64,000 bases of DNA, from contig CAWFJP010000003.1 in NCBI GenBank assembly GCA_963816145.1, positions 352,001 to 416,000 of the forward strand. The letters run 5' to 3'. Position 1 is the stretch's first letter; every line of letters starts with the position of its first letter. This document shows positions 6,398-18,655 of this stretch, in pieces. Under the pieces are notes generated by a model that was not told the origin of the DNA, searched no databases, and saw only the letters and a program-made list of their open reading frames with translations. This DNA is from an uncultured delta proteobacterium. GTDB taxonomy: Bacteria > Desulfobacterota > Binatia > UBA9968. Position numbers and translations under genes: made by a program.

Positions 6398-7168
6398 ATG
6401 ATTCAAGGATTGAAAGACAAAGTGGTCATCGTCACCGGCGGCGGCCATGGCATCGGGCGAGCCTATTGTCACGGCTTCGCCGAAGCGGGAGCAAAAGTCG
6501 TGGTCGCCGATATCGACGCGCCGGCCGCCGAAAAAGTCGCCGGCGAGGTGGTCAAACAGTTCGACGGCAAAGCGCTGGCGGCGAAAGTCGATGTTGCCAA
6601 CGAGCAATCGACCAAAGACATGGCCAAACTGGCGCTCGACAAGTTCAATCGCATCGACGTGCTGGTCAACAACGCGGCAATCTTCTCGACCATTCCGATG
6701 AACCGCGGCGGCATCGACACCATTGACCCAGCAGAATGGGACCGCATGATGACGGTCAATCTCAAAGGTTTATTTTTCTGCACCCGCGCCGTGTTGCCGG
6801 CCATGCGCCAACAAAAGGCCGGTAAGATCATCAACATTTCTTCCGGCACCGCGCTCAACGGCAGCGCCGGGCGCATCCATTACGTCACCTCGAAGGCAGG
6901 TGTAATCGGCTTCACCCGGACTTTAGCTCGTGAAGTCGGCGAAGACAACATCAATGTCAATGCCATCGCCCCGGGCTCGACCTTGTCGGAAGAAAATCCC
7001 ACCGAAGAAGTTCTCAAGATGCGCGGCGCCCGCTTGGCCGACCGCGCGTTGAAGCGCGTGCAGTTGCCCAAGGATCTCGTCGGCACCATGTTATTCCTCG
7101 CCTCGCCGTTGAGCGACTTCATGACCGGGCAGACCGTTGCCGTCGACGGCGGCGTCTGCTTTCTATAG
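6398..7168 (+). CDS. SDR family oxidoreductase (FabG-like)
   Basis: TGGGHGIG, NNAA, YVTSK, NAIAPG. Confidence 0.92.
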   Translation: MIQGLKDKVVIVTGGGHGIGRAYCHGFAEAGAKVVVADIDAPAAEKVAGEVVKQFDGKALAAKVDVANEQSTKDMAKLALDKFNRIDVLVNNAAIFSTIPMNRGGIDTIDPAEWDRMMTVNLKGLFFCTRAVLPAMRQQKAGKIINISSGTALNGSAGRIHYVTSKAGVIGFTRTLAREVGEDNINVNAIAPGSTLSEENPTEEVLKMRGARLADRALKRVQLPKDLVGTMLFLASPLSDFMTGQTVAVDGGVCFL

Positions 7169-7178
7169 AAGTAATCCC

Positions 7179-8015
7179 ATGGCCGGATATCAACACCGCA
7201 CGATTCACATCGGCGACATTAAAACCCATTTCCTGGAAGCCGGCAGCGGTCCCGATCTCGTTTTGCTACATGGCGGTGAATACGGCGCCTCGGCGGAGAT
7301 CACTTGGCGCCATAACATCGAAGCGTTGGCTAAAACGTTTCACGTCATTGCTCCGGATACCTTAGGTTGGGGACAGACGGACAAAGTTTACAGTTTCAGC
7401 GACCCCGCCGGCCTGCGCATCAAACATCTGCAGCGGTTCCTCGAATCGTTGGGCATCGGCAAGGCGTTCTTTGTCGGCAACTCCGCCGGCGGCGGCCTGG
7501 TGTTGCGCGCGTCGGTGCGCCAACCGGCGCCGCTGCAAATTCGCAAAATGGTCACCATCTGCGGCAATGCCAGTGTGTTTAAGACCCATTCGCAAGCGGA
7601 CTTGGAAAACTATACGCCGTCGCTGGATAACATGAAAAAGATCGTTGCACTGCTTTTCCACGATAAAAAGTGGCAGAGCGATGAAATCATTCGCGAGCGT
7701 TATGAAAGCTCGATCTTGCCCGGCGCCTGGGAAACCCTGTCGGCGGCGCGCCTGCGCAGCCCCGTGCATCAAGTCCGCTCGACCACCGACGAGTTCGTCA
7801 AGCAGTTGGCGCAGTTGACCATTCCGCTGCTGCTCATGTCCTGCGAGCATGATCCGCTCAACCAAAGCGATTGGGACCTGAACTTGCAAAAAATTATCCC
7901 CGGCTCCAAGGTGCATCGCTTTGAACATTCGGCCCATGAGCCGCAGATCGAGGAGAGCGAAGAGTTCAATCGGGTGCTGAGCGAATTTTTACTAAGCGAG
8001 GGAAACAAACCATGA
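7179..8015 (+). CDS. Alpha/beta hydrolase, meta-cleavage-product (C-C) hydrolase-like
   Basis: LLHGG, GNSAGG nucleophile elbow, HSAHEPQIE catalytic His. Confidence 0.8.
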   Translation: MAGYQHRTIHIGDIKTHFLEAGSGPDLVLLHGGEYGASAEITWRHNIEALAKTFHVIAPDTLGWGQTDKVYSFSDPAGLRIKHLQRFLESLGIGKAFFVGNSAGGGLVLRASVRQPAPLQIRKMVTICGNASVFKTHSQADLENYTPSLDNMKKIVALLFHDKKWQSDEIIRERYESSILPGAWETLSAARLRSPVHQVRSTTDEFVKQLAQLTIPLLLMSCEHDPLNQSDWDLNLQKIIPGSKVHRFEHSAHEPQIEESEEFNRVLSEFLLSEGNKP

Positions 8016-9022
8016 AGATCGGAAGGATCCGGCAGATCGGGCCGAGCGGTCTGATCGTTTGCGTCGTTGTGGGTGTTTTGGCATCGGCGAGCGCCCACGC
8101 CCAGCTCACCCGGCTCAAGACTTCCTACAGTGCCTTGACTGCGAATATGGCAGCTTACTGGCTCGCCAAAGAGGCCAAGATTTTTGAAAAACATGGTTTA
8201 AGCGTCGACGTAGTACTGATCGAAAGCGGCGTGACCACGGTGCAGGCGCTCACCGCCGGCGAAACCCAGATCGCCATGGGCGGCGGCACGGTTGCGGTAA
8301 GCAGCAATCTCGCCGGCAGCGACATCGTGTCGATATCCAGCATCGAAAGCCGTATGCCCTATGCGCTGCTCACACAAAAAGAAATTAAGACCTTCGAGCA
8401 ACTCAGAGGAAAAAAGATGGCTGTCTCGCGCTTCGGCAGCGCGTCCGATTTGGCCGCGCGCTTGATCCTGCAACGCTACGGCCTAATACCCGACAAAGAT
8501 GTGACCCTCCTCCAAACCGGCGGCACCAGCACACGGCTATCCGCGTTGAGTAAGCGTAGTATCGACTCAACGGTGCTAACCCCCGAGTTTTTCAACCTCG
8601 GCAAGAAAGCCGGCTTTACTATCCTGGTCGACCCAACTCAATACGACATCCCCTTTCCCCAGCTTGAAGTGATCACCAGTCGGGCTTTTTTGAAATCGCA
8701 ACCGGATATCGCCACACGTTACATGCGCGCCATCATTGAAGGCATCCACATGGTGAAAAATAATCCCGAACCGTCGATCAGTGCGCTCAGGAAATATTTA
8801 AAGATCGACGACCGTGAAGCCTTGGAAGAAGTCTATCGGCTGTACAAGGAACTCTATCAACCGATTCCCCACCCGTCCCCAGCCGCGATCCAAACTCAAC
8901 TTACTTGGATGGGTGAGAAAGATCCGCGCGCCAAAGCTGCCAAACCCGAACAGTTCATCGATGGCTCAATTTTGCGTGAGATCGAGAAAAGCGGTTTCGT
9001 GGCGAAACTCTACCAAAAGTAG
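8012..9022 (+). CDS. NMT1/SsuA-like ABC substrate-binding protein (orphan)
   Basis: FEKHGLSVDVV, LRGKKMAVSRFGSASD, KPEQFID. Confidence 0.88.
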   Translation: MKIGRIRQIGPSGLIVCVVVGVLASASAHAQLTRLKTSYSALTANMAAYWLAKEAKIFEKHGLSVDVVLIESGVTTVQALTAGETQIAMGGGTVAVSSNLAGSDIVSISSIESRMPYALLTQKEIKTFEQLRGKKMAVSRFGSASDLAARLILQRYGLIPDKDVTLLQTGGTSTRLSALSKRSIDSTVLTPEFFNLGKKAGFTILVDPTQYDIPFPQLEVITSRAFLKSQPDIATRYMRAIIEGIHMVKNNPEPSISALRKYLKIDDREALEEVYRLYKELYQPIPHPSPAAIQTQLTWMGEKDPRAKAAKPEQFIDGSILREIEKSGFVAKLYQK

Positions 9023-9049: not shown

Positions 9050-10000
9050 TTACTTCACCTTGATGCCAAGATCTCGCTGCGCTTCGCGTAGAATTGACAG
9101 ATCGGAGACTTCGCTGAGTGCGATTTCCCGATCGACTCTCGTCACCGACTTGATGTCTTCGATGAGTCTGCGCAGACCGTCTTCCGGCAGATTCCCGTCG
9201 TCGTTAAAACCCTTCACCAGCGAGCTATAAAGCGCGGTGGCGGCCTCTTTATCGAGCCGGTACGTGCTCATCAACACTTCGATGGTTCCATCGCGATTGG
9301 TGTGCATGTAGCGGTTGGCTTTGATGCCGGCCCTGATCAGCCGGCGAATCTCATCTGGCCGCTCCTTGATCTTCCGCGAATGAGCGATCAGGCCGCTGAT
9401 CGGGTAGGTAAATAGATCTTCCGCTCGCGCCAAAACGTTCAAACCCAACCTCCGACTACGATAATCCCACGGCACCGGCATCACCTGAGCATCGATCTGC
9501 CCCTGGCTCATTCGAACCAGCGCGGTCTCGCCGCCGGGACTACCGATAAATTTCATGTCTTTGTCGGGGTCATAGCCAAAATGCTTCATCATCAACCTTG
9601 CGACCAGATCAGGGGCGGTGCCCGGCGAAGCGCCGATGGTCTTGCCCTTGAGGTCTTTGATGGTTTTGATCTCGGCGCGACTGACCAACACGAAATGCGC
9701 CACAGGCCGAAAGCAAACCACGATCCTGGTCGGCAGCTGGCCCTGAACCATGGCGCGTATGGCCGAGCCAAAGCCCGTGAAGTAGTCGATGTCGCCGTTT
9801 GCCAGCGCCACATTTGCCACCGGTCCCGTAATCGTAATAAGCTCAGCATCGAATCCCTCGTCCCGCAAATAACCGCGCTTTTGCGCCAAGGGAAGCGTGA
9901 ATTGGCCCGCGTCGTTAGGCATGCCGATGCGAATCCTGTCCGCCGCTTGAGCTGAAGTATGCAGCACGCAAATAACCATGAAGGTGGCGAGGTACAGCAT
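9050..10000 (-). CDS. NMT1/SsuA-like ABC substrate-binding protein (orphan)
   Basis: GYLRDEGFDAEL, DLKGKTIG, signal peptide. Confidence 0.85.
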   Translation of the reverse strand: MLYLATFMVICVLHTSAQAADRIRIGMPNDAGQFTLPLAQKRGYLRDEGFDAELITITGPVANVALANGDIDYFTGFGSAIRAMVQGQLPTRIVVCFRPVAHFVLVSRAEIKTIKDLKGKTIGASPGTAPDLVARLMMKHFGYDPDKDMKFIGSPGGETALVRMSQGQIDAQVMPVPWDYRSRRLGLNVLARAEDLFTYPISGLIAHSRKIKERPDEIRRLIRAGIKANRYMHTNRDGTIEVLMSTYRLDKEAATALYSSLVKGFNDDGNLPEDGLRRLIEDIKSVTRVDREIALSEVSDLSILREAQRDLGIKVK

Positions 10001-10017: not shown

Positions 10018-11433
10018 CTAGTCAATGGCCGGCCGGGTTTTGCCAAATCCTGTCATCTGCTCAAAAGCATGAGCAAGTTGCAGCACGGCAAGATCGTCGC
10101 GGTAGCGACCGACGAGTTGAATGCCCACGGGCAAACCATCCGGTGTGAATCCCGCCGGCACGGAAATCGCCGGACAAAAGGTCGACGTGATCCAGTAAGC
10201 CGATTTCATCCAATCGAGATAGGTCTCCATCTTTACGCCGTCGATCTCATGGGGCCAATCAAGCGTGGCGTCGAAGGGCGGCACTTGGTTCACAGCGCAG
10301 ATGATAAATTGATATTTTTCCTGGAATCGGCGCATGCGCTGCAATAGTTCACCATGCAGATGCATCGCCCGGGCGATATCGTCACCGGACAATTTCTGCC
10401 CCTGCTCGATCTGCCACACCGCTTCGGGTTTCATCTTGTCGCGATGGTGTTCAAGCAGCGGCCCGAGGCTGTGCCAATAGTGCCATGCGCGCAGTGTCAA
10501 AAACACTTCATCGGCCCCGGTCAAATCCGGCACGACATCTTCCACCACACTACCGAGATCGACGAATGTCTGGCGTTGCCAATCGAGCACGTCGCGGACG
10601 TGCCGATCAAGCGGCAAGCCGCCAAGATTCGGGCACCAGGCGATTCGTATTTCCCGAAAATCGCGATCCAGCCGTTGCGCAAAGATCGCGGGCTCCGATG
10701 GGTAACAGGCAGGATCGCGCGGATCAGCACCGGCCATGACACTCAACAGGAGTGCCGTGTCCGCCACTGAACGCGCCATCGGCCCTTTAACGGTAAAGCC
10801 CAAGAACGGCAGCGCCACCGGCGCGCTCGGCACCAAGCCGACGCTTGGCCGCAGCGCCACGATATTGTTGAAGTTGGCCGGATTGCGTAGCGAGCCGCCG
10901 AGATCGCTGCCGCTGGCGAGCGACAACATCCCCGCCGCCAATGCCGCCCCCGCCCCACCGCTGGAGCCGCCGGCACTCTTGGTGCGGTCATAAGGGTTGA
11001 GGGTCATACCATAGACGTCGTTGTAGCTATGCGAGCCCATACCGAACTCGGAGATGTTCGTTTTGCCGATCGGCAAAACACCGGCGCACCGCAAGCGCTC
11101 GGCCAGCACGGAATCCTCCGACGGCATGAAGTCTTTGAAGATGAGAGAACCGCGGGTCATCGGAAAACCTACAACCGGGTCGAGTTCTTTGAAGGCGAAG
11201 GGCAGACCGTGCAGCGGCCCAACATCGTCGCCGCGAGCCAATCGACGATCGGCATCTTCAGCGAGCGCGAGGCATTGATTGTCCGGCAGCTTGGCGACGA
11301 TGGCGTTTATTTTGGGATTCAGCTTTGCGATCTGGGAAAGGAACGCCGACATGACCTCACGCGCTGATACTGTACCGGCACGTAGCAATCCCGCTAGTTC
11401 GCGGGCGCTCTTGAAGCAGAGTTCGTTGCTCAT
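10018..11433 (-). CDS. Amidase signature family protein
   Basis: GPLHGLPFAFKE, GKTN, GGSSGG, GSDLGGSLRNPA. Likely start MSNELCFKSAREL at 11433; the longer tracked ORF is read-through from the upstream pseudogene. Confidence 0.9.
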   Translation of the reverse strand: MSNELCFKSARELAGLLRAGTVSAREVMSAFLSQIAKLNPKINAIVAKLPDNQCLALAEDADRRLARGDDVGPLHGLPFAFKELDPVVGFPMTRGSLIFKDFMPSEDSVLAERLRCAGVLPIGKTNISEFGMGSHSYNDVYGMTLNPYDRTKSAGGSSGGAGAALAAGMLSLASGSDLGGSLRNPANFNNIVALRPSVGLVPSAPVALPFLGFTVKGPMARSVADTALLLSVMAGADPRDPACYPSEPAIFAQRLDRDFREIRIAWCPNLGGLPLDRHVRDVLDWQRQTFVDLGSVVEDVVPDLTGADEVFLTLRAWHYWHSLGPLLEHHRDKMKPEAVWQIEQGQKLSGDDIARAMHLHGELLQRMRRFQEKYQFIICAVNQVPPFDATLDWPHEIDGVKMETYLDWMKSAYWITSTFCPAISVPAGFTPDGLPVGIQLVGRYRDDLAVLQLAHAFEQMTGFGKTRPAID

Positions 11434-11526
11434 CAAATTGTTGAACAACCTTGTTCTGTAAGTCGAAAGAACAAAGTTTATCGGCCTTAAGTTGCGGACT
11501 CCGGAATCCGTGATTCCAACTTTGTC

Positions 11527-11598
11527 GTCACCCCGGTGAAAACCGGGGTCCATCCCCATCCCCCTTAACCTGGATACCGTTTTCCAACGGTATGACGG
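11527..11598. repeat. REP/RPE-like double-hairpin element
   Basis: CGTCACCCCGGTGAAAACCGGGGTCCA...CTGGATACCGTTTTCCAACGGTATGACGG; reverse-complement relative at about 43129-43219. Confidence 0.75.
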
Positions 11599-11719
11599 AC
11601 GCTGCCCGTCACCTGGCTGTCCACATGACTCAATCGTGAGCCATATCGATGGGCGGGCATGATGCATTTTCACTTTGCCGGAGGCCGAGAACTGCCAATT
11701 TCGCGCGAAAGCAGCCAGC

Positions 11720-12266
11720 CCGGACGCTACCGGTTCTTTTGGCGGTAATGGCGGCGCGACGATGTGCTTGGCAATCTGTTCGGTTTCCCAGAGCCTGGAG
11801 AATTTGAGCGCGCGCGGGCAGTGGCTATAGGATTCCTCGACGTCAATGAGCAAGCCCTGAAGGATCTACGCCCTAGCGTCGGCGTTAAAGATCTCCGATT
11901 GAATGTCTTTCACTCGCCTCTATCGACTACTTTTGACCGGCCGTTGATACGGACGGTGTTATCATGGCCGGGAACGAGAAAGATCAATCCAACCTTGGGG
12001 TTGGTTTCCAGATTGCCGTAACCGTGGAAAAGCTTGTTACCGGCCACATCGGGAAGTAATAACTGCCTGTCATTGCGGATCTTAACAAAACCGGGCCGGC
12101 CGCCTTTAGGCGAAGCGTCGCAATCGCCCGCGGCATTGCTGGTAGCCGTCGCGCAGAACGGTGAATGGCGAATGAAATCTTGAATCCACTCGGCCATATA
12201 TGCCCGCACCTCGCCTTTGATGCGCGCCGCGGGAAATCCGAACTTTTCTTGATACTTATTTCCCAT
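11720..12266 (-). pseudogene. Pyridoxamine 5'-phosphate oxidase-like FMN-binding protein, disrupted
   Basis: FIRHSPF, CDASPKGGRPGFV, PDVAGN, NPKVGLIF, then frameshift near 11910 and in-frame TAG at 11866-11868 before LIDVEESYSHCPRALKFSRLW. 3' end approximate. Confidence 0.8.
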
Positions 12267-12290
12267 CGCGAATCCTCATAGCCTAGTGAA

Positions 12291-12848
12291 TCATTTCTTG
12301 GGATCGAGAAAATTCAAACGCTCCGCCATCGGCGTCTCCGGAAATACGTAGCCGCAGGCCTTACACGTGCGCATTTTTACGTCGCCGTTGAATTCCCCAT
12401 AGACCGCCGACACCTGCGACGGAATATTTCCCTGGTTCACCACGCGGGAAAGCACCAGCTCATCGCAATTCTCACAAAACCAGGCGAACTCTTCTTTCTC
12501 TTCCTGACGCCGTTTGCGCTCGATCACCAAACCCCAGGTGTTTTCAAACCGGCGCGGCGAATGGGGCAAGCCGCCGGGACACACGAAGATCTCGCCTTCT
12601 TTGATCCTGACACTCTGGCGCCGCTCGCCTTCCGGCTTCACAACCAACTCCATATCGCCTTCAACTTGATAAAAGAACTCATCCCCCGGCTCGATATGAA
12701 AGTCGAGCCGCGTGTTCGGCCCGCGCAAGATCATGACAAGAAAATCCTTCTGGTGCGCCAGCAGCTGATTGGTTCGAAACGGCGGGTTGAACAAGTGCTG
12801 GTTGTCGCCAACCCACTTCTTCAAGTGGAAAGTCGAAAGCAAATCCAT
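12291..12848 (-). CDS. nbaC: 3-hydroxyanthranilate 3,4-dioxygenase
   Basis: GPNTRLDFHIEPGDEFFYQ, PHSPRR, GLVIER, rubredoxin-like CENC/CKAC. Confidence 0.88.
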   Translation of the reverse strand: MDLLSTFHLKKWVGDNQHLFNPPFRTNQLLAHQKDFLVMILRGPNTRLDFHIEPGDEFFYQVEGDMELVVKPEGERRQSVRIKEGEIFVCPGGLPHSPRRFENTWGLVIERKRRQEEKEEFAWFCENCDELVLSRVVNQGNIPSQVSAVYGEFNGDVKMRTCKACGYVFPETPMAERLNFLDPKK

Positions 12849-12849
12849 T

Positions 12850-13626
12850 TTACTTCTTCAACTTTCCGCACTCTCGCGCCACACCGTCGGTGATCGCCCA
12901 CCATATGCCCAATCCTTTGCGCAGGGCTTTCACCACGCGCACTTGCAGCTCGTTGGTGGTGGCGAACTGTTCGACCAGGTCGTAACCTATGTTGCTATGT
13001 TCGGTGTCGGCTTCGCCATGCTCGGCGAAGAACTCGATGTCGTTGGCTTTCAACCCATAGTGATCTTTGAAGGCACGGAAGAATTTGCCGCCGGTCAAAT
13101 GGTTCGAGTATTCGTTGCAGCAATTCGTCGCGGCGACTTGTTCGAGTATATGGTTGCTGCGCAGGGCGATGTCCATCCAACCGACCCGCGCCAAAACCGT
13201 GGTCGGCAGGAAGTCTTCTTCGATCTCACAGCGCTCTAGCTCCTGCGCCGGCACGCCGATGGCATCGCCAAAGCGCAGAAACAATGCGCGATGGCCGAGT
13301 ACCTTTCGCGGCGATCCCTCGAAATAGCTATAGCCAACCTCGGAGTGAATGATATCGACGAACTTCTTGTGAATCTCGGGATCGTGAATCCCTGACATCT
13401 GGCAGCGAACCAGCTTTGCCGTGTTGATCGCGACATTGCATGCAAAGATGCCCCAGGCCTCCTTGGCCCAGATGCGCACGGCTTCGACCGGCAGCTTGCC
13501 GTCGAACAGGTCGCGATAGAACGGATGATGGAGCCGCGCATGGCGGTTCTTCACCTCGTCCATTAAAAATTGGCAAAGTTCCTTGGTTGGCAAGGTTTCG
13601 CCGCTTAGGACAGCTTCGATTGACAT
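12850..13626 (-). CDS. Heme-oxygenase-like diiron oxidase (TenA/PqqC/CADD superfamily)
   Basis: HHPFY, SE...GHRALFLRF, NE, FFAEHGEADTEH: an E-H-E-H-D-H diiron ligand pattern. Confidence 0.82.
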   Translation of the reverse strand: MSIEAVLSGETLPTKELCQFLMDEVKNRHARLHHPFYRDLFDGKLPVEAVRIWAKEAWGIFACNVAINTAKLVRCQMSGIHDPEIHKKFVDIIHSEVGYSYFEGSPRKVLGHRALFLRFGDAIGVPAQELERCEIEEDFLPTTVLARVGWMDIALRSNHILEQVAATNCCNEYSNHLTGGKFFRAFKDHYGLKANDIEFFAEHGEADTEHSNIGYDLVEQFATTNELQVRVVKALRKGLGIWWAITDGVARECGKLKK

Positions 13627-13671
13627 GATTCACCTCGACAAGAATCTTGGAAGGACGGCTTTCATCCCGCC

Positions 13672-14184
13672 CTAGAATTCAGAATTGCTTTTTGCGTTCT
13701 TTGGCCCTTTGCGGTTAATTTCTCTTTCTCTTCCGTCTCTCTTGGTCGCGGCACTTGGGTTCCGACGATTATCGAACTTGAATTTGTTGGCGTTGCAGGC
13801 GATCTCGACGCGGTTGCCGTCCGGGTCGAGAAAACTCACCGAGCGGTTGCCGGCTACCACCAGGGTCTCGGGCCCGCTGACCACCGGGATCTTGCGCCGT
13901 TTCAAGATCGGATAGAGCCGATCGATGATTCCGTTCTTGTCGACGTAGATGCAGAAGTGATGCAGCTTCGCCATCCCATTGCCGCTGACATGCTTGGCGC
14001 CCTTGGGCAAAGCCTGCAGCGCGATATCGTGATGCTCGCGGCCGAAGCTCATGAACGTCATTTTGGTTTGTAAGTTGCGCGCCGACACCTTGAGACCAAG
14101 GATGGTCCGATAGAATTGTTCGGATTTTTTCAAATCCTTGACATTAAGGACGATATGACCGAGAACGCCATTGCTGATTTTCAT
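13672..14184 (-). CDS. VOC family protein (single-domain glyoxalase/extradiol dioxygenase-like)
   Basis: LGHIVLNVKDL, EHHDIAL, LHHFC, SVSFLDPDGNRVEI. Confidence 0.85.
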   Translation of the reverse strand: MKISNGVLGHIVLNVKDLKKSEQFYRTILGLKVSARNLQTKMTFMSFGREHHDIALQALPKGAKHVSGNGMAKLHHFCIYVDKNGIIDRLYPILKRRKIPVVSGPETLVVAGNRSVSFLDPDGNRVEIACNANKFKFDNRRNPSAATKRDGREREINRKGPKNAKSNSEF

Positions 14185-14194
14185 AGGAAGCCTC

Positions 14195-14286
14195 AATTAA
14201 TCTTGCACCGGCGGGACTGTCAAGATCAATGATGCGATAAATTGCTGAGAAGCGGTTTGACAAGCCTTCGACGAATACGGGATATT
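14195..14286. promoter_or_regulatory. Back-to-back sigma70-like promoters of two divergent operons
   Basis: Minus strand TTGACA(14223-14218)-N17-TTAATT; plus strand TTGACA(14257)-N18-GATATT. Confidence 0.55.
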
Positions 14287-14320: not shown

Positions 14321-15028
14321 ATGAAAATCATGGTCGTTATGGGCGAATACCCACCAGCGGAAGGCGAGCACCGCCGCCAAGCCGTGCTCAAGTGCGCTTC
14401 GCCTGGCACAGAGATCGGCTTTGACGTCATCAAAGCGACGTTCTTCCGCCATTCTAACTCGCAGGTGAATTCACTGTCGGCGGGACCACTGGTCGCCGAA
14501 GTCGCTATCAAGGCCGAAGCCAACGGCTACGACGCGGTCGTCCCTTTCGGCACTTTGGACGCCGGAGTGGAACTGTCGCGCAACCTCGTCAAGATCCCGG
14601 TGGTCGGCGCCGGCCAATCCGTTCTCCATTTAGGCGCACAGCTAAGCAACCGACTCGGCGTGGTCGCCTATGAAGACAAGAGCGTGCCGTTCATGCGCAA
14701 GCAGATGCACGCCTGGCGCGTCGCCGATTACGTCGTCGGCATCCGCGGTATCGGCATTCCGCTGCCCGAAAGCAGCAAAAATCGTGACGCCATGCGCGGC
14801 CGCTTCATCGAAGTCGCCCGTTACCTGATCGACCAGTGCGACGCTGAAATCATCGTGCCCATGGGCGTTACCATGGTGCCGGTGCAGTATTCGCCTCAGG
14901 AAATGGAACAAGAGCTTGGCGTGCCGGTAATGAACGCGCTTAAGACCAGCATCCAGACCGCCGAGATGCTGGTGCGCATGGGTTTAACGCATAGCAGGCG
15001 AACTTATCCGCGCCCGGCGGTGCAGTGA
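14321..15028 (+). CDS. Asp/Glu/hydantoin racemase-fold protein lacking the catalytic Cys pair
   Basis: ASPGTEI, AEANGYDAVVPFGTLDAGV, KIPVVG, IVPMGVTM, ELGVPVMN, GLTHSRRTYP. Confidence 0.8.
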   Translation: MKIMVVMGEYPPAEGEHRRQAVLKCASPGTEIGFDVIKATFFRHSNSQVNSLSAGPLVAEVAIKAEANGYDAVVPFGTLDAGVELSRNLVKIPVVGAGQSVLHLGAQLSNRLGVVAYEDKSVPFMRKQMHAWRVADYVVGIRGIGIPLPESSKNRDAMRGRFIEVARYLIDQCDAEIIVPMGVTMVPVQYSPQEMEQELGVPVMNALKTSIQTAEMLVRMGLTHSRRTYPRPAVQ

Positions 15029-15046: not shown

Positions 15047-15916
15047 ATGCGTAAGTTTGAGTTGCTTGAACCGAGATCGCTGGCGGAGGCTTGCGCGATT
15101 CTCGCTAACGACGGCGATGCCAAGGCGATCGCCGGCGGCACGGCGCTGCTGACAATTATCAAGCAGGGACTGCTGCTGCCAAAGACATTGGTCAACCTAA
15201 AGAAGATCGGCGATGCCGGCGCAATCACCTTCGATCCGGTCAACGGGTTACGCATCGGCGCCCTGGCAACGATCAACGAGATCGAAACATCGGAAACCGT
15301 TCGGCGGCACTACCCGGCGCTTGCCGAAGCCTGCCATGTCGTCGCCAACATCCGTATCCGCAACATGGCCACCATCGGCGGCAATCTTGTCCACGGTGAT
15401 TATCAATCCGATCCGCCGACAGTGCTGGCGGTTTTGAATGCTCGTGTCGAACTGATGAGTGCAGACAAAATTCGCCGGCTTGCACTGGCTGATTTTCAAC
15501 TTGGCAGCTATGATACCGCGCTTCAGCCCGGTGAACTGCTTTCCGCCGTGGTCATTCCACCGCTTCCCCAGGGAATGCGCGGTCATTACGTTAAGTTCAC
15601 CACCGGTTCTTCGGAAGAGCGCCCCTGCGCCGGTGTTGCTGCGTTGGCGCGCATCGATAGTGGTGTTTGCCATGAGCTGCGCCTCGCGGTAGGAGCAGTG
15701 TCGGCGAAGCCAGTGCGCATTGGTGCAGAATCGCTCGCCGGCGGCAAATCGCTTAACGCCGATCTAATCGCGACAATCACTATCGAAGCCGCAAGCGCTA
15801 TCGACCCCATCGACGATGTCCGCGGACCGGCGGATTACAAGCGCCATCTGGTCGGTGTTTTGACCCGGCGCGCGCTGCAAGCACTGTCGAACAGCACAAC
15901 GGAGAGCAAGTCATGA
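15047..15916 (+). CDS. Molybdenum hydroxylase FAD-binding medium subunit (CoxM-like)
   Basis: IAGGTAL, IRNMATIGGNL, DDVRGPADYKR. Confidence 0.92.
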   Translation: MRKFELLEPRSLAEACAILANDGDAKAIAGGTALLTIIKQGLLLPKTLVNLKKIGDAGAITFDPVNGLRIGALATINEIETSETVRRHYPALAEACHVVANIRIRNMATIGGNLVHGDYQSDPPTVLAVLNARVELMSADKIRRLALADFQLGSYDTALQPGELLSAVVIPPLPQGMRGHYVKFTTGSSEERPCAGVAALARIDSGVCHELRLAVGAVSAKPVRIGAESLAGGKSLNADLIATITIEAASAIDPIDDVRGPADYKRHLVGVLTRRALQALSNSTTESKS

Positions 15917-18192
15917 CTCTCGTCGGCACCAATGTCGAAATGGTCGGCGGCCGTGCCAAAGTCAGCGGTGCGGTGAGCTACGTCGCCGATATGGAATTTC
16001 CCGGCCAACTCTACGCCAAGGCGCTGCGTAGTCCCTATCCCCATGCGAAACTGCTGCGCATCGATGCCGGCAAAGCCGCAGCGCTCCCCGGCGTGCGCGC
16101 CGTGGTGACGCGCGACGATCTCACGGGACTGAATCCCTATTTCGGAACTGGCGTCGAAGACCAGCCGGTGCTGGTCATCGACAAAGTGCGCTGCGTCGGC
16201 GACATCGTCGCCGCGGTCGCTGCCGAGAGTCGCGAGATCGCTGAAGAGGCGGTGACGCTGATCGAAGCGGATTATGAAGAATTGCCGGCAGCGACCGACA
16301 TTCTCGAAGCGGCCAAGCCCAGCGCGCCGATCGTCCACGAGCAGCATGTCGACAAACGCGCCGGTGGCAACATCCACGGCGTCTACCGCGCCACCAGTGG
16401 TGATATCGAGCAAGGCTTTAAAGAATCCGACGAAATCATTGAAAATATTTATAAAATCCCGCCGGTGCAGCATGGCCACATCGAGCCCCATGTGGTCACC
16501 GCGTTGTGGGAGCCCAGCGGCAAACTCGTAGTCCACACGCCGAGCCAAACGCCATCGCCGCTGCAGGAGCAGATCGCTAAGGTTTTCCAATTGCCGCTCA
16601 ACCGCGTGCGCGTCATCGTGCCTTTTATCGGCGGCGGCTACGGCGGTAAGAACCACGCGCGCATTGAACCGGTGGTGGCGCTCTTGGCGCGCAAGGCGCG
16701 CCGGCCGGTGCAGTGGATTCTCACCCGCGACGAAGTCTTTCTCACCGGACGGCGCTTCGGCGCGGTGGTGAAAATAAAAACCGGCTTCAAGCGCGACGGT
16801 CGGCTGTGGGCGCGCAAAGTCGAGGCCTGGTACGACATGGGCGCCTACGCGCTCTCCGGTCCGGCGAACACCAAGAACGCCTGTATCATCGCCGGCGGGC
16901 CGTACAACATTCCTCATCGCGATTACACGACCTACGCCGTCTACACCAATCTGCCGCCGGCGGGCCCGTACCGCGGCGTCGGCGCGTCGCATGTCTGCTG
17001 GGCCTACGAATCGGACATCGATGACATCGCCCGGCGCTGCCATCTCGACCCGCTTGAAGTCCGGCTGAAAAATTTGCTTCGTGAAAACGACCGTTTCATT
17101 ACCGGCGAGCCGATGATTTCGGTCGGCGTGTCCGAGTGCGTCAAGCAAGTTGCCCAATCCATCCATTGGCAATCGGGAGCGGAGCAATCCTTGCGAAGCG
17201 ATGCAATAGTCCGCGGCAAAGGGGTCGCAGTGGCGATCAAGAGCACCTCGACGCCGAGCACTTCCGCTGCCAGTGTGCGGCTCAATGCCGACGGCTCGGC
17301 GATTTTGCTTACCAGCACTTCCGATATGGGCCAGGGAGCGCAAACCGCGTTGGCGCAGATCGTTGCCGATGAATTAGCATTGCCTTTCGAGCGTGTGTCC
17401 GTGACCTTCCCCGACAGTGACGTTACGCCCTACGACAAGTCAACGAGTTCGAGCCGAGCGACGTTCCATATGGGCAAAGCGGCACAAATGGCGTGCGGCA
17501 AGATCCGCGAACAACTATTTCAAGCGGGCGCGAAAAAATTGGAAGCGCGCATCGAAGACTTGGAGCTGCGCGATAGCCGATTGCAAGTCAAAGGAGTGCC
17601 GGAAAAGAATCTCACCTACCCACAGATCTTCAAAGCGATCTACGGCGAAGCCAGCGGCAGCCTGTTCGGCAGCCATACCCTGCGCACCGAAGGCGGCGTC
17701 GACGCCGTCACCGGCCAAGGCAAGGGATCGTCTTTCTGGTTCTATTCAGCCGCCGGCGCCGAAGTCGAGGTCGATACCGAGACCGGCAAAGTCCGTGTCT
17801 TACAAGTCGCTAGTGCCGTTGATGTCGGTAAGGCGGTTCATCCATTGCAATGCAGCCTGCAAAACGAAGGCTCCGCCCTGGCCGGTCTCGGCTCGGCGCT
17901 GTTCGAAGAGATGCGCTACGACAACGGCCAGCCGATCAACAGCAGTTTTCTCGACTATCTGTTGCCGTCAATGCTCGATCATCCCGGCGAATTTCAATCG
18001 CTGCTGGTGGAAACACCCCATCCCGACGGCCCTTGCGGCGCCAAAGGCATGGGCGAGGCCGCCCTGCCGCCCATGGCGCCGGCCATCGGCAACGCCATCG
18101 CCAATGCGCTGGGCGGCGCGCGCGTCCGCGACCTGCCGGTGAAGCCGCATAAAATCGTCGCCGCGTTGAACAGATCCAAGGAGCACCGCTGA
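15913..18192 (+). CDS. Xanthine dehydrogenase family molybdopterin-binding large subunit
   Basis: LRSPYPHA, QHGHIEP, GGGYGGK, YRGVG, MGQG, AKGMGE; no AYXCSFR, so not form I CO dehydrogenase. Confidence 0.92.
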   Translation: MTLVGTNVEMVGGRAKVSGAVSYVADMEFPGQLYAKALRSPYPHAKLLRIDAGKAAALPGVRAVVTRDDLTGLNPYFGTGVEDQPVLVIDKVRCVGDIVAAVAAESREIAEEAVTLIEADYEELPAATDILEAAKPSAPIVHEQHVDKRAGGNIHGVYRATSGDIEQGFKESDEIIENIYKIPPVQHGHIEPHVVTALWEPSGKLVVHTPSQTPSPLQEQIAKVFQLPLNRVRVIVPFIGGGYGGKNHARIEPVVALLARKARRPVQWILTRDEVFLTGRRFGAVVKIKTGFKRDGRLWARKVEAWYDMGAYALSGPANTKNACIIAGGPYNIPHRDYTTYAVYTNLPPAGPYRGVGASHVCWAYESDIDDIARRCHLDPLEVRLKNLLRENDRFITGEPMISVGVSECVKQVAQSIHWQSGAEQSLRSDAIVRGKGVAVAIKSTSTPSTSAASVRLNADGSAILLTSTSDMGQGAQTALAQIVADELALPFERVSVTFPDSDVTPYDKSTSSSRATFHMGKAAQMACGKIREQLFQAGAKKLEARIEDLELRDSRLQVKGVPEKNLTYPQIFKAIYGEASGSLFGSHTLRTEGGVDAVTGQGKGSSFWFYSAAGAEVEVDTETGKVRVLQVASAVDVGKAVHPLQCSLQNEGSALAGLGSALFEEMRYDNGQPINSSFLDYLLPSMLDHPGEFQSLLVETPHPDGPCGAKGMGEAALPPMAPAIGNAIANALGGARVRDLPVKPHKIVAALNRSKEHR

Positions 18193-18193
18193 G

Positions 18194-18655
18194 ATGAAGC
18201 TCGCCATCGCCGCCACGATTAACGGCCAGCGCGAAGAGTTAGCCGTCACCCCGCATCAAACGCTTTTGGAATTCCTGCGTGACGACCTGAAGCTCAAAGG
18301 CGCCGTCGAAGGTTGCAGCGTCGGCGTCTGTGGTTCCTGCACGGTGCTAATCGACGGCAAGCCGGTCAGTTCTTGCCTGACCCTCGCCGGCAACATCGAA
18401 GGCAAATCAGTCACGACCATCGAGGGGCTGTCGCAAAATGGCGAACTCGACCCGGTGCAGCGAGCGTTCTTGAAACACCAAGCCTTCCAATGCGGCTTCT
18501 GCACCACCGGCATGATCCTGGCAGTCAAGGGTTTGCTGAACGCGCACCCGCATCCGAGCGAAGCGCAGGCCCGCGATTATCTTTCCGGCAATTTATGCCG
18601 TTGCGGGACCTATAAAGAAGTATTGGCGGCGGTCAAGGAGCTGAGCGGCGAGTGA
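18194..18655 (+). CDS. Molybdenum hydroxylase 2x[2Fe-2S] small subunit (CoxS-like)
   Basis: GCSVGVCGSCTV, QCGFCT, GNLCRCG. Confidence 0.95.
   Translation: MKLAIAATINGQREELAVTPHQTLLEFLRDDLKLKGAVEGCSVGVCGSCTVLIDGKPVSSCLTLAGNIEGKSVTTIEGLSQNGELDPVQRAFLKHQAFQCGFCTTGMILAVKGLLNAHPHPSEAQARDYLSGNLCRCGTYKEVLAAVKELSGE

Follow-up and report, generated by a model that had tools for sequence, protein, structure and literature searches.

A heme-oxygenase-like diiron protein encoded beside 3-hydroxyanthranilate dioxygenase: an accessory gene with two lineages in one slot

We analyzed a gene cluster in a 64,000-nucleotide stretch of DNA (hereafter the window; positions 352,001 to 416,000 of contig CAWFJP010000003.1, assembly GCA_963816145.1) from an uncultured delta proteobacterium assigned to the Binatia. 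Reading along the minus strand from 14196 to 10018, the cluster comprises genes for a VOC-family protein, a heme-oxygenase-like diiron oxidase (HDO), a 3-hydroxyanthranilate 3,4-dioxygenase (3-HAO), a broken PNPOx-like protein and an amidase. We found that the HDO gene of the window, designated HDO1, recurs beside the 3-HAO gene throughout its range, that a second HDO lineage (HDO2) sits in the same slot, and that the VOC and 3-HAO genes persist as a pair in relatives that have neither HDO. What is new here is an uncharacterized HDO clade; what is known is the classical 3-HAO to which that clade is attached. We tentatively propose that the HDO is a peripheral oxygenase through which an arylamine enters 3-hydroxyanthranilate cleavage, a proposal for which we infer both the substrate and the direction.

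A first-pass annotation of the window had described the five genes, had noted that a single nucleotide separates HDO from 3-HAO, and had tied the significance of the pairing to its conservation in relatives. All five genes were found where that annotation had placed them, one base (12849) lies between the HDO stop codon and the 3-HAO start codon, and the linkage itself is conserved. The 3-HAO gene lies directly downstream of HDO1 in 26 of 29 genome loci, and the VOC gene lies upstream in 27 of 29. Two of the three loci without 3-HAO (L013 and L028) are contigs that end within HDO; the third, L002, is considered below. In a sample of 61 genomes from the window's family, HDO1 was detected in 26; in 23 of the 26, 3-HAO is on the same contig, about 1 kb away or closer. 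The three exceptions (G310, G323, and G324) are fragmented assemblies. Our counts include three genomes flagged as unpublished (G303, G306, which is the source of locus L093, and G326), and all conclusions hold without them.

The slot between VOC and 3-HAO is also used by a second HDO. In L004, a 282-aa paralogue that shares 29% identity with HDO1 and keeps all six metal ligands lies between HDO1 and 3-HAO. HDO2 directly precedes 3-HAO in L087, L088, and L089 as well. In L087 and L088, both from the window's genus, HDO2 stands where HDO1 would be, in the order racemase-like gene, VOC, HDO2, 3-HAO, PNPOx, amidase, and beyond the racemase-like gene there is a molybdenum hydroxylase in L087 and a UbiD gene in L088. 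L089 retains HDO1 remnants beside HDO2. A single-protein scan of metagenome contigs found HDO2 ahead of 3-HAO in six of seven loci, the seventh contig ending at HDO2, and two metagenome loci carry the order VOC-HDO1-HDO2. We built a maximum-likelihood tree of 47 HDOs chosen from search matches and own-genome paralogues, with fragments left out. In this tree, HDO1 (support 100/100) and HDO2 (97/89) form separate clades with different nearest neighbors within a loose subgroup (86/82), and not one of 200 bootstrap trees united them. Both lineages were found only in the VOC-to-3-HAO slot. Since the two are distinct clades, an HDO has been placed or kept at the slot beside 3-HAO in two lineages.

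Dependence between the genes runs one way. Among 301 genomes of the class, HDO1 orthologues were confined to the window's family, occurring in 8 of the 25 other family genomes and in none of 275 genomes from 19 other families; within the window's own genus, 4 of 7 genomes (the window genome included) have it. Such patchiness within a genus tends to fit accessory catabolic genes. A near full-length 3-HAO orthologue (at least 64% identity) was present in 42 of the 61 family genomes, with fragments in three more, while the VOC orthologue was present in 43 and HDO2 in four. The 42 genomes with 3-HAO divide into 23 with HDO1, three with HDO2 only, and 16 with neither. In all seven HDO-less loci retrieved (L090-L096), VOC and 3-HAO remain together: they are adjacent or have between them a binding-protein gene, with or without an isochorismatase-like gene. 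All three genomes of the sister family that we searched have a 3-HAO orthologue, in the arrangement VOC-(isochorismatase-like)-3-HAO beside glucose-6-phosphate dehydrogenase and with no HDO. Given that 16 of 42 genomes dispense with both HDOs and that VOC and 3-HAO remain paired, these two genes make up the invariant core, with the HDO as an accessory. The outer contexts of HDO loci differ, featuring either a molybdenum hydroxylase or UbiD; one locus, L101, contains the SDR-hydrolase pair described below followed contiguously by a convergent 3-HAO-HDO-VOC run.

The isochorismatase-family genes that occupy the VOC-to-3-HAO slot were located at L026:5844-6509, L095:9003-9629, L103:8305-8933, and L104:8528-9166. 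Those of L104 and L026 have glycine at the position of the nucleophilic cysteine of cysteine hydrolases (TDGGV versus TDVCV). The window's own cluster contains no isochorismatase.

To judge from its sequence, the 3-HAO of the window is a genuine 3-hydroxyanthranilate 3,4-dioxygenase. It scored 179 bits against the nbaC equivalog model TIGR03037, passing the cut-off of 145.95, and 193.5 bits against NF009763, below the cut-off of 220. Solved 3-HAO structures matched it with E values of 1e-29 to 1e-33. The protein is identical to the Cupriavidus enzyme (1yfu) at R47, H51, E57, H95, R99, E110, and four cysteines, and these ten positions are kept in 39 of 39 orthologues from the collected loci, so the intact iron and rubredoxin ligands reported in the first-pass annotation are real. 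We take His51, Glu57, and His95 to be the iron ligands, Arg47, Arg99, and Glu110 to be the substrate residues, and the four cysteines to form the rubredoxin-like site.

The VOC protein is harder to name. Its probable start is the ATG at 14184 (MKISNG), which coincides with the end coordinate given in the first-pass annotation. Invariant residues among 23 orthologues are H14, E54-H55-H56-D57, H79-H80, E110, and E131; of these, H14, H80, and E131 are candidates for a two-histidine, one-carboxylate site of the kind found in type I extradiol dioxygenases. The best NCBIfam match was the catalytic half of catechol 2,3-dioxygenase, at 51 bits versus a cut-off of 320, and a fold search returned generic small VOC proteins only.

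HDO1 has a complete diiron ligand set, as had been claimed: in a 41-sequence alignment, E96, H112, E172, H203, D207, and H210 are each invariant or at least 90% conserved, and the H-x3-D-x2-H motif aligns with the same motif in 9pj4. The structure was predicted with a pLDDT of 94.3, and comparison of this model with CADD and PqqC, a check suggested by the first-pass annotation, placed HDO1 in the seven-helix heme-oxygenase-like fold that those two proteins share. Foldseek ranked PqqC best (TM 0.81), followed by CADD (TM 0.75/0.89), with UndA, BesC, HrmI, and FlcD weaker. A word-indexed search returned 143 relatives of HDO1; the 120 of these 143 that were listed share 65-92% identity. They are labeled Binatia, Deltaproteobacteria and similar metagenome-assembled genomes, and in the JGI annotation many carry the name PQQ synthase. 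When 1.84 billion representatives were searched exhaustively, just one full-length relative was found above 50% identity, and the next full-length matches were 33-37% identical. A search of the ESM Atlas returned generic family names only.

Table 1. Features of the window's cluster and its flanks (window coordinates).
Feature	Coordinates	Strand	Description
VOC	13672-14196	-	174 aa; PF00903, E 2e-17; small glyoxalase/dioxygenase-fold metalloprotein
HDO1	12850-13626	-	258 aa; PF14518, E 3e-16; TENA/PqqC, E 4e-8
3-HAO (NbaC type, rubredoxin-like Cys4 site)	12291-12848	-	185 aa; PF06052, E 5e-42
PNPOx-type FMN flavoprotein pseudogene, MSMEG_1061 family	11740-12266 (limits of C-terminal remnant approximate)	-	TIGR04025
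PNPOx-like N-terminal piece	11910-12266	-	118 aa; TIGR04025 positions 5-113 of 197
Short dispersed repeat, spacer upstream of amidase	11525-11616	n/a	
Amidase-signature amidase	10018-11433 (likely start 11433; within ORF 10018-11853)	-	PF01425, E 8e-90
NMT1/SsuA-type periplasmic solute-binding protein	9050-10000	-	PF09084; kept in L003 and L087
NMT1/SsuA-type solute-binding protein	8012-9022	+	PF09084; often near the cluster in relatives
Meta-cleavage-product C-C hydrolase, alpha/beta fold	7137-8015	+	Conserved 3-HAO neighbor
Short-chain dehydrogenase (SDR)	6398-7168	+	PF00106, E 1e-58; conserved neighbor
Hydantoin/allantoin-racemase-like protein	14321-15028	+ (divergent from VOC)	PF01177
Three-subunit molybdenum hydroxylase, xanthine-dehydrogenase family (FAD, Mo, 2Fe-2S subunits)	15047-18655	+	Pfam

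Downstream of 3-HAO, the cluster continues with two genes that co-occur with HDO (Table 1). Amidase was present in 15 of 25 HDO-bearing loci with at least 2.5 kb of downstream sequence versus none of seven HDO-less loci; in L029 it is a fragment only. The amidase of the window passed NF005686 (491 bits, cut-off 465), and its solved relatives include GatA (E 2e-52) and the aryl acylamidase 4yj6 (E 4e-47). Like the amidase gene, the PNPOx gene was seen only at HDO-bearing loci. The window's copy had been described as broken, and comparison with intact 181-aa relatives revealed three lesions: one nucleotide is missing near 11914, GAG at 11868-11866 has become TAG, and the native stop codon has been lost. 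It is therefore a real pseudogene and not a single sequencing slip. In L009, L022, L023, L024, and L027, a gene for a DUF1003 membrane protein lies between 3-HAO and the PNPOx-like gene. Between the pseudogene and the amidase of the window lies a repeat of about 90 nt with 13 blastn matches in the window's own genome; in a wetland DNA run, its depth climbs to 705 and loose ends flank it on either side.

The flanks of the cluster contain further candidate catabolic genes. The C-C hydrolase matched CumD (7e-37), HsaD and BphD (both near 1e-26), and CarC (1e-22), and the neighboring SDR is 73-98% identical across many loci. On the other side, divergent from the cluster, are the racemase-like protein, which matched the allantoin racemase 5lfd (E 4e-11), the molybdenum hydroxylase, and a metallo-beta-lactamase-fold gene. 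The molybdenum hydroxylase also lies beside the cluster in relatives with the type A context; no NCBIfam model was passed by its subunits in the window. We considered a maleamate pathway, in which the racemase-like gene would encode maleate isomerase and the hydrolase would be a formylmaleamate deformylase, and dropped it, allantoin/hydantoin racemases and C-C hydrolases having been matched instead. Promoter and terminator consensus matches were at chance level in the window (4 versus 2.4 expected and 3 versus 5.7 expected).

We next examined the genome to which the window belongs (7.8 Mb, 99.5% complete) for other sources of 3-hydroxyanthranilate. The first-pass annotation had stated that the usual routes are missing from the window. 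Neither kynureninase (TIGR01814) nor tryptophan 2,3-dioxygenase (PF03301) had a match anywhere in the genome, which extends part of that statement; no search by name was made for kmo, nbaA, or nbaB. In the open reading frames of the window, Pfam scans found no pqq families, the remaining genome not having been searched for them. A chorismate route via isochorismatase and a dehydrogenase was considered too and is unsupported: besides the lack of isochorismatase in the cluster, the genome has a single chorismate-binding enzyme (G000:C5:229512-230273, in L105). Because there is only this one, the genome, as judged from its sequence, has no pabB, entC, or phzE.

This genome has several 3-HAO-family genes and a greatly expanded HDO family. 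It encodes five full-length 3-HAO-family proteins, three of them with the full residue set, and at least 14 CoxL paralogues. One full-residue 3-HAO paralogue (L060, G000:C3:259800-271500) lies beside two adenylation-thiolation didomain proteins, a CoxL-type hydroxylase, and a UbiD decarboxylase, a context that could possibly represent secondary metabolism. PF14518 matched 29 proteins, 25 of them over the cut-off. One clade of HDO paralogues (100/98) comprises L064b, L070, L075, L077, and L078, and L070, L075, and L077 directly adjoin cupin or bicupin genes; other paralogues in the range L063-L078 adjoin NMT1 binding proteins, UbiD, or Amidohydro_2. Immediately downstream of the own-genome paralogue closest to HDO1 (L065:3298-4738, G000:C15; 28.5% identity) is a PF04199 gene of the cyclase/kynurenine-formamidase family. 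In another paralogue (L066:3173-4681, G000:C5; 502 aa), an HDO domain is fused to a C-terminal domain of the enolase superfamily; its neighbors are a GH3-family protein and an MFS/acyltransferase/AMP-binding fusion.

On this evidence, our tentative preference is for an HDO that works upstream of 3-HAO. The cluster would be an accessory catabolic island of a soil or wetland Binatia-type bacterium; near-identical DNA was found in soil and wetland sequencing data (16 runs, 15 studies). Its central ring-cleavage module would consist of VOC and 3-HAO, with the meta-cleavage-product hydrolase and SDR alongside, and some lineages would have added a peripheral branch made up of the HDO, often together with the aryl-acylamidase-like amidase and the PNPOx-type flavoprotein. 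As an optional insert between the VOC and 3-HAO genes, filled by either HDO1 or HDO2, the HDO would act as a diiron oxygenase on a free small molecule and not on residues of the HDO itself. By turning an arylamine into an o-aminophenol that 3-HAO cleaves, it would broaden the range of substrates entering the module. Our best guess for the arylamine is anthranilate, possibly freed from an N-acyl or amide precursor by the co-occurring amidase. The presumed reaction is ring hydroxylation, or N-hydroxylation followed by rearrangement, and both an electron donor and the order of HDO before 3-HAO are likewise presumed. We favor conversion of an arylamine to an o-aminophenol because funneling is the commonest logic of such add-ons.

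A bolder version holds that HDO1 and HDO2 are the first catabolic HDOs, which would convert anthranilate released by the amidase to 3-hydroxyanthranilate, either directly or via a hydroxylamine. We regard this version as doubtful. If true, it would provide a flavin- and kynurenine-independent entry into 3-hydroxyanthranilate meta-cleavage, and the HDO paralogues, which number roughly 25 per genome and include a clade paired with bicupin dioxygenases, could be lineage-wide hydroxylating partners of ring-cleaving dioxygenases.

Several observations weigh against an HDO that feeds 3-HAO. In the 16 of 42 genomes with neither HDO1 nor HDO2, 3-hydroxyanthranilate must come from another source, and the one-way dependence described above is equally compatible with an HDO acting after 3-HAO. 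The flavoprotein that the first-pass annotation had cast as the reductant is a pseudogene in the window and is absent at many HDO-bearing loci, so that role is not borne out. L002 encodes an HDO with 94% identity and has no 3-HAO in the 2.4 kb downstream, where a remnant of a 23S-rRNA-IVS-type gene and two further open reading frames are found and the DNA is rearranged at the remnant. Spacing between HDO and 3-HAO is variable: depending on the locus, a 23S-rRNA-IVS four-helix-bundle gene, a second HDO, or an isochorismatase-like gene intervenes. Given these selfish or unrelated genes in relatives, the tight 1-nt coupling seen in the window is not conserved. Kinship among the genomes makes the samples non-independent, so the co-occurrence counts overstate the support and form a pattern rather than statistical proof. 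Transcription of the cluster is a weak hint at most: metatranscriptome contigs from three libraries cover parts of HDO (12875-13108 without mismatch, and 13181-13376), VOC (13840-14061), and the amidase (10867-11017, 11201-11419, and 11296-11485), and these contigs are short and might reflect DNA carry-over; stretches that no RNA contig covers are not read as silent. Finally, no aromatic ring hydroxylase is among the HDO reaction classes in section 4 of PMC13108848, the portion of that source available to us.

The 23S-rRNA-IVS-type gene (PF05635), often truncated, was observed between HDO and 3-HAO in L003 (6850-7287), L005, L006, L007, L011, L023, L025, and L120. In some relatives, a binding-protein gene lies between VOC and HDO.

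Among the alternatives, one places the HDO downstream of or beside 3-HAO, acting on 2-amino-3-carboxymuconate semialdehyde (ACMS) or a related enamine or aldehyde by oxidation, or by PqqC-like cyclization with oxidation, as an optional alternative to the hydrolase branch. We consider this rather unlikely. It accommodates the fact that the HDO always accompanies 3-HAO and not the reverse, an asymmetry that suits a downstream accessory no less than an upstream one, and PqqC, the best structural match, is a ring-closing oxidase. Pfam and NCBIfam scans identified no ACMS decarboxylase or aminomuconate dehydrogenase in the cluster, and the meta-cleavage-product hydrolase is a conserved neighbor, so different loci may process the fission product differently. 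However, PqqC has no metal site, whereas HDO1 keeps six diiron ligands and scores only 43.6 bits against the PqqC model TIGR02111 (cut-off 240). That the HDO co-occurs with the amidase and PNPOx genes is more suggestive of a branch feeding the module from upstream. Cyclization of ACMS to quinolinate needs no redox step, which also counts against a downstream oxidase.

A second alternative, to which we assign a similarly low probability, is that the HDO shares no pathway with 3-HAO, oxidizes an imported nitrogen heterocycle or amine, and has at most common regulation with the module. Its location would then reflect the many catabolic genes and HDO paralogues that this genome gathers, along with NMT1-type binding proteins, into islands. 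The number of PF14518 proteins in the genome, the many paralogues beside NMT1-type binding proteins, Amidohydro_2, UbiD, or cupin genes, the binding-protein gene that separates VOC from HDO in some relatives, and the HDO of L002 all agree with such packing. Against this, two HDO lineages occur only in the slot by 3-HAO across about 40 loci with differing outer contexts, an association that chance would not maintain.

The first-pass annotation had raised a third explanation, namely that HDO and 3-HAO form a kynurenine-independent route to quinolinate for NAD, and had suggested checking the genome for kynU and nadAB. Consistent with such a route, kynureninase and tryptophan 2,3-dioxygenase are lacking as described, nadC is present (334 bits), and nadB had no genome match over the cut-off, the best candidate being an ambiguous stand-alone FrdA/NadB-like protein of 591 aa (322 bits versus 453). 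In addition, the VOC-3-HAO pair lies among housekeeping genes in the sister family (f3) and in L026. On the other hand, nadA is present in the window genome (291 bits) and in all three sister-family genomes that carry 3-HAO, HDO1 is restricted to 26 of 61 family genomes and 4 of 7 in its own genus, the genome has three full-residue copies of 3-HAO, and the flanks of the window are catabolic. Because the module is patchy and both nadA and nadC are present, we judge a dedicated NAD route very unlikely. In a separate observation on a very small sample, two high-quality relatives without a 3-HAO orthologue (G002 and G029) had no nadA match.

The first-pass annotation had also drawn an analogy to CADD. 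Under a fourth explanation, HDO1 would be a self-sacrificing synthase that makes p-aminobenzoate or another aminobenzoate from its own tyrosine and lysine. The best solved sequence relative of HDO1 is indeed a 4-aminobenzoate synthase (9pj4, E 3e-10), whose peptides nearly match those published for Nitrosomonas NePabS (PMC11965152, main text), and a genome with a single chorismate-binding enzyme, hence without pabB, might have use for such an enzyme. According to the same main text, NePabS sacrifices Tyr25 and Lys159, and Tyr41 is essential. Mapping these residues through the 9pj4 alignment placed HDO1 Y37 and K183 at the sacrificial positions and W53 at the essential tyrosine. Within the HDO1 clade, however, the lysine position is K, R, or Q, and the tyrosine is replaced by valine in P0107. 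HDO1 scored 46 bits against the CADD model TIGR04305 (cut-off 200), ranking 13th of 22 own-genome paralogues; none of the paralogues passes this model, the best two (C15:50063 and C29:359690) reaching 97 bits. Because the sacrificial tyrosine and lysine positions vary in the clade, and with a patchy distribution and no adjoining folate genes, self-sacrifice by HDO1 is so unlikely that we rank it last, and the analogy to CADD chemistry fails.

An HDO tied to the breakdown of aromatic amines would give the superfamily a further reaction class and a further physiological role. A 2026 review puts the number of functionally validated HDOs at about a dozen and draws its examples from natural-product or cofactor biosynthesis (PMC13108848, in the part available). 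Our literature searches found no paper linking "heme oxygenase-like" with "3-hydroxyanthranilate"; those on NbaB/mutase returned unrelated papers only, those on anthranilate 3-hydroxylase returned nothing useful, and those on Binatia and anthranilate turned up no paper naming Binatia or Binatota. With three full-residue 3-HAO copies in a genome that has no usual kynurenine source, the origin of the substrate becomes a concrete, testable question, and relatives with HDO1, HDO2, or no HDO in the same slot are natural variants for comparison. Our results also guard against over-reading: the pairing very probably defines no new NAD route, and the HDO is very probably no CADD-like self-sacrificing enzyme.

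Comparison with known systems helps to define what is shared and what is not. The window's 3-HAO resembles NbaC and the 3-HAO of the 2-nitrobenzoate and kynurenine pathways in passing the nbaC model and in keeping the iron, substrate, and rubredoxin-site residues. It differs from them in its setting, which has VOC, HDO, and a meta-cleavage-product hydrolase as partners in a genome without kynureninase or tryptophan 2,3-dioxygenase. Geobacillus thermodenitrificans reportedly uses an anthranilate 3-hydroxylase, said to be flavin-dependent and two-component, to supply 3-HAO. If our preferred explanation is right, the window would follow the same sequence from anthranilate through 3-hydroxyanthranilate to cleavage by 3-HAO, with a diiron HDO as the candidate hydroxylase instead. 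PqqC is the closest structural match to HDO1 and lends its name to the JGI annotation of HDO1 relatives, but it is metal-free, its model is far from passed, and its pqq partners are missing from the window scans. CADD (Chlamydia trachomatis CT610) and NePabS share with HDO1 the heme-oxygenase-like fold, the three-histidine, three-carboxylate ligand set, and the best sequence match in the PDB. Unlike HDO1, whose clade does not keep these residues, they have a conserved sacrificial lysine and tyrosine (K152 and Y27 in CADD; K159 and Y25 in NePabS). The neighbors of HDO1 are VOC and 3-HAO, not folate genes, and HDO1 has an insertion of about nine residues between its first glutamate ligand and the following histidine ligand.

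Two further systems offer partial precedents. RohS is an HDO N-oxygenase that converts 2-aminoimidazole to 2-nitroimidazole (PMC13133933, as far as that source was available). N-oxygenases of this type belong to the same superfamily and act on an amino group borne by an aromatic ring, thus providing a precedent for arylamine chemistry by an HDO. They are biosynthetic, whereas HDO1 lies in a catabolic context and is structurally less similar to HrmI than to PqqC or CADD. In Aspergillus terreus, a catabolic 3-hydroxyanthranilate cluster has been reported to act jointly with nicotinate catabolism (PMC7842363, in the part available). That cluster resembles the window's in its catabolic, non-NAD use of 3-HAO and in a proposed link to pyridine-ring catabolism, and it differs, in the same available part, in having ACMSD and AMSDH next to 3-HAO and neither an HDO nor a VOC gene. 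By analogy, the molybdenum hydroxylase adjacent to the window's cluster could possibly act on quinolinate or picolinate derived from the fission product.

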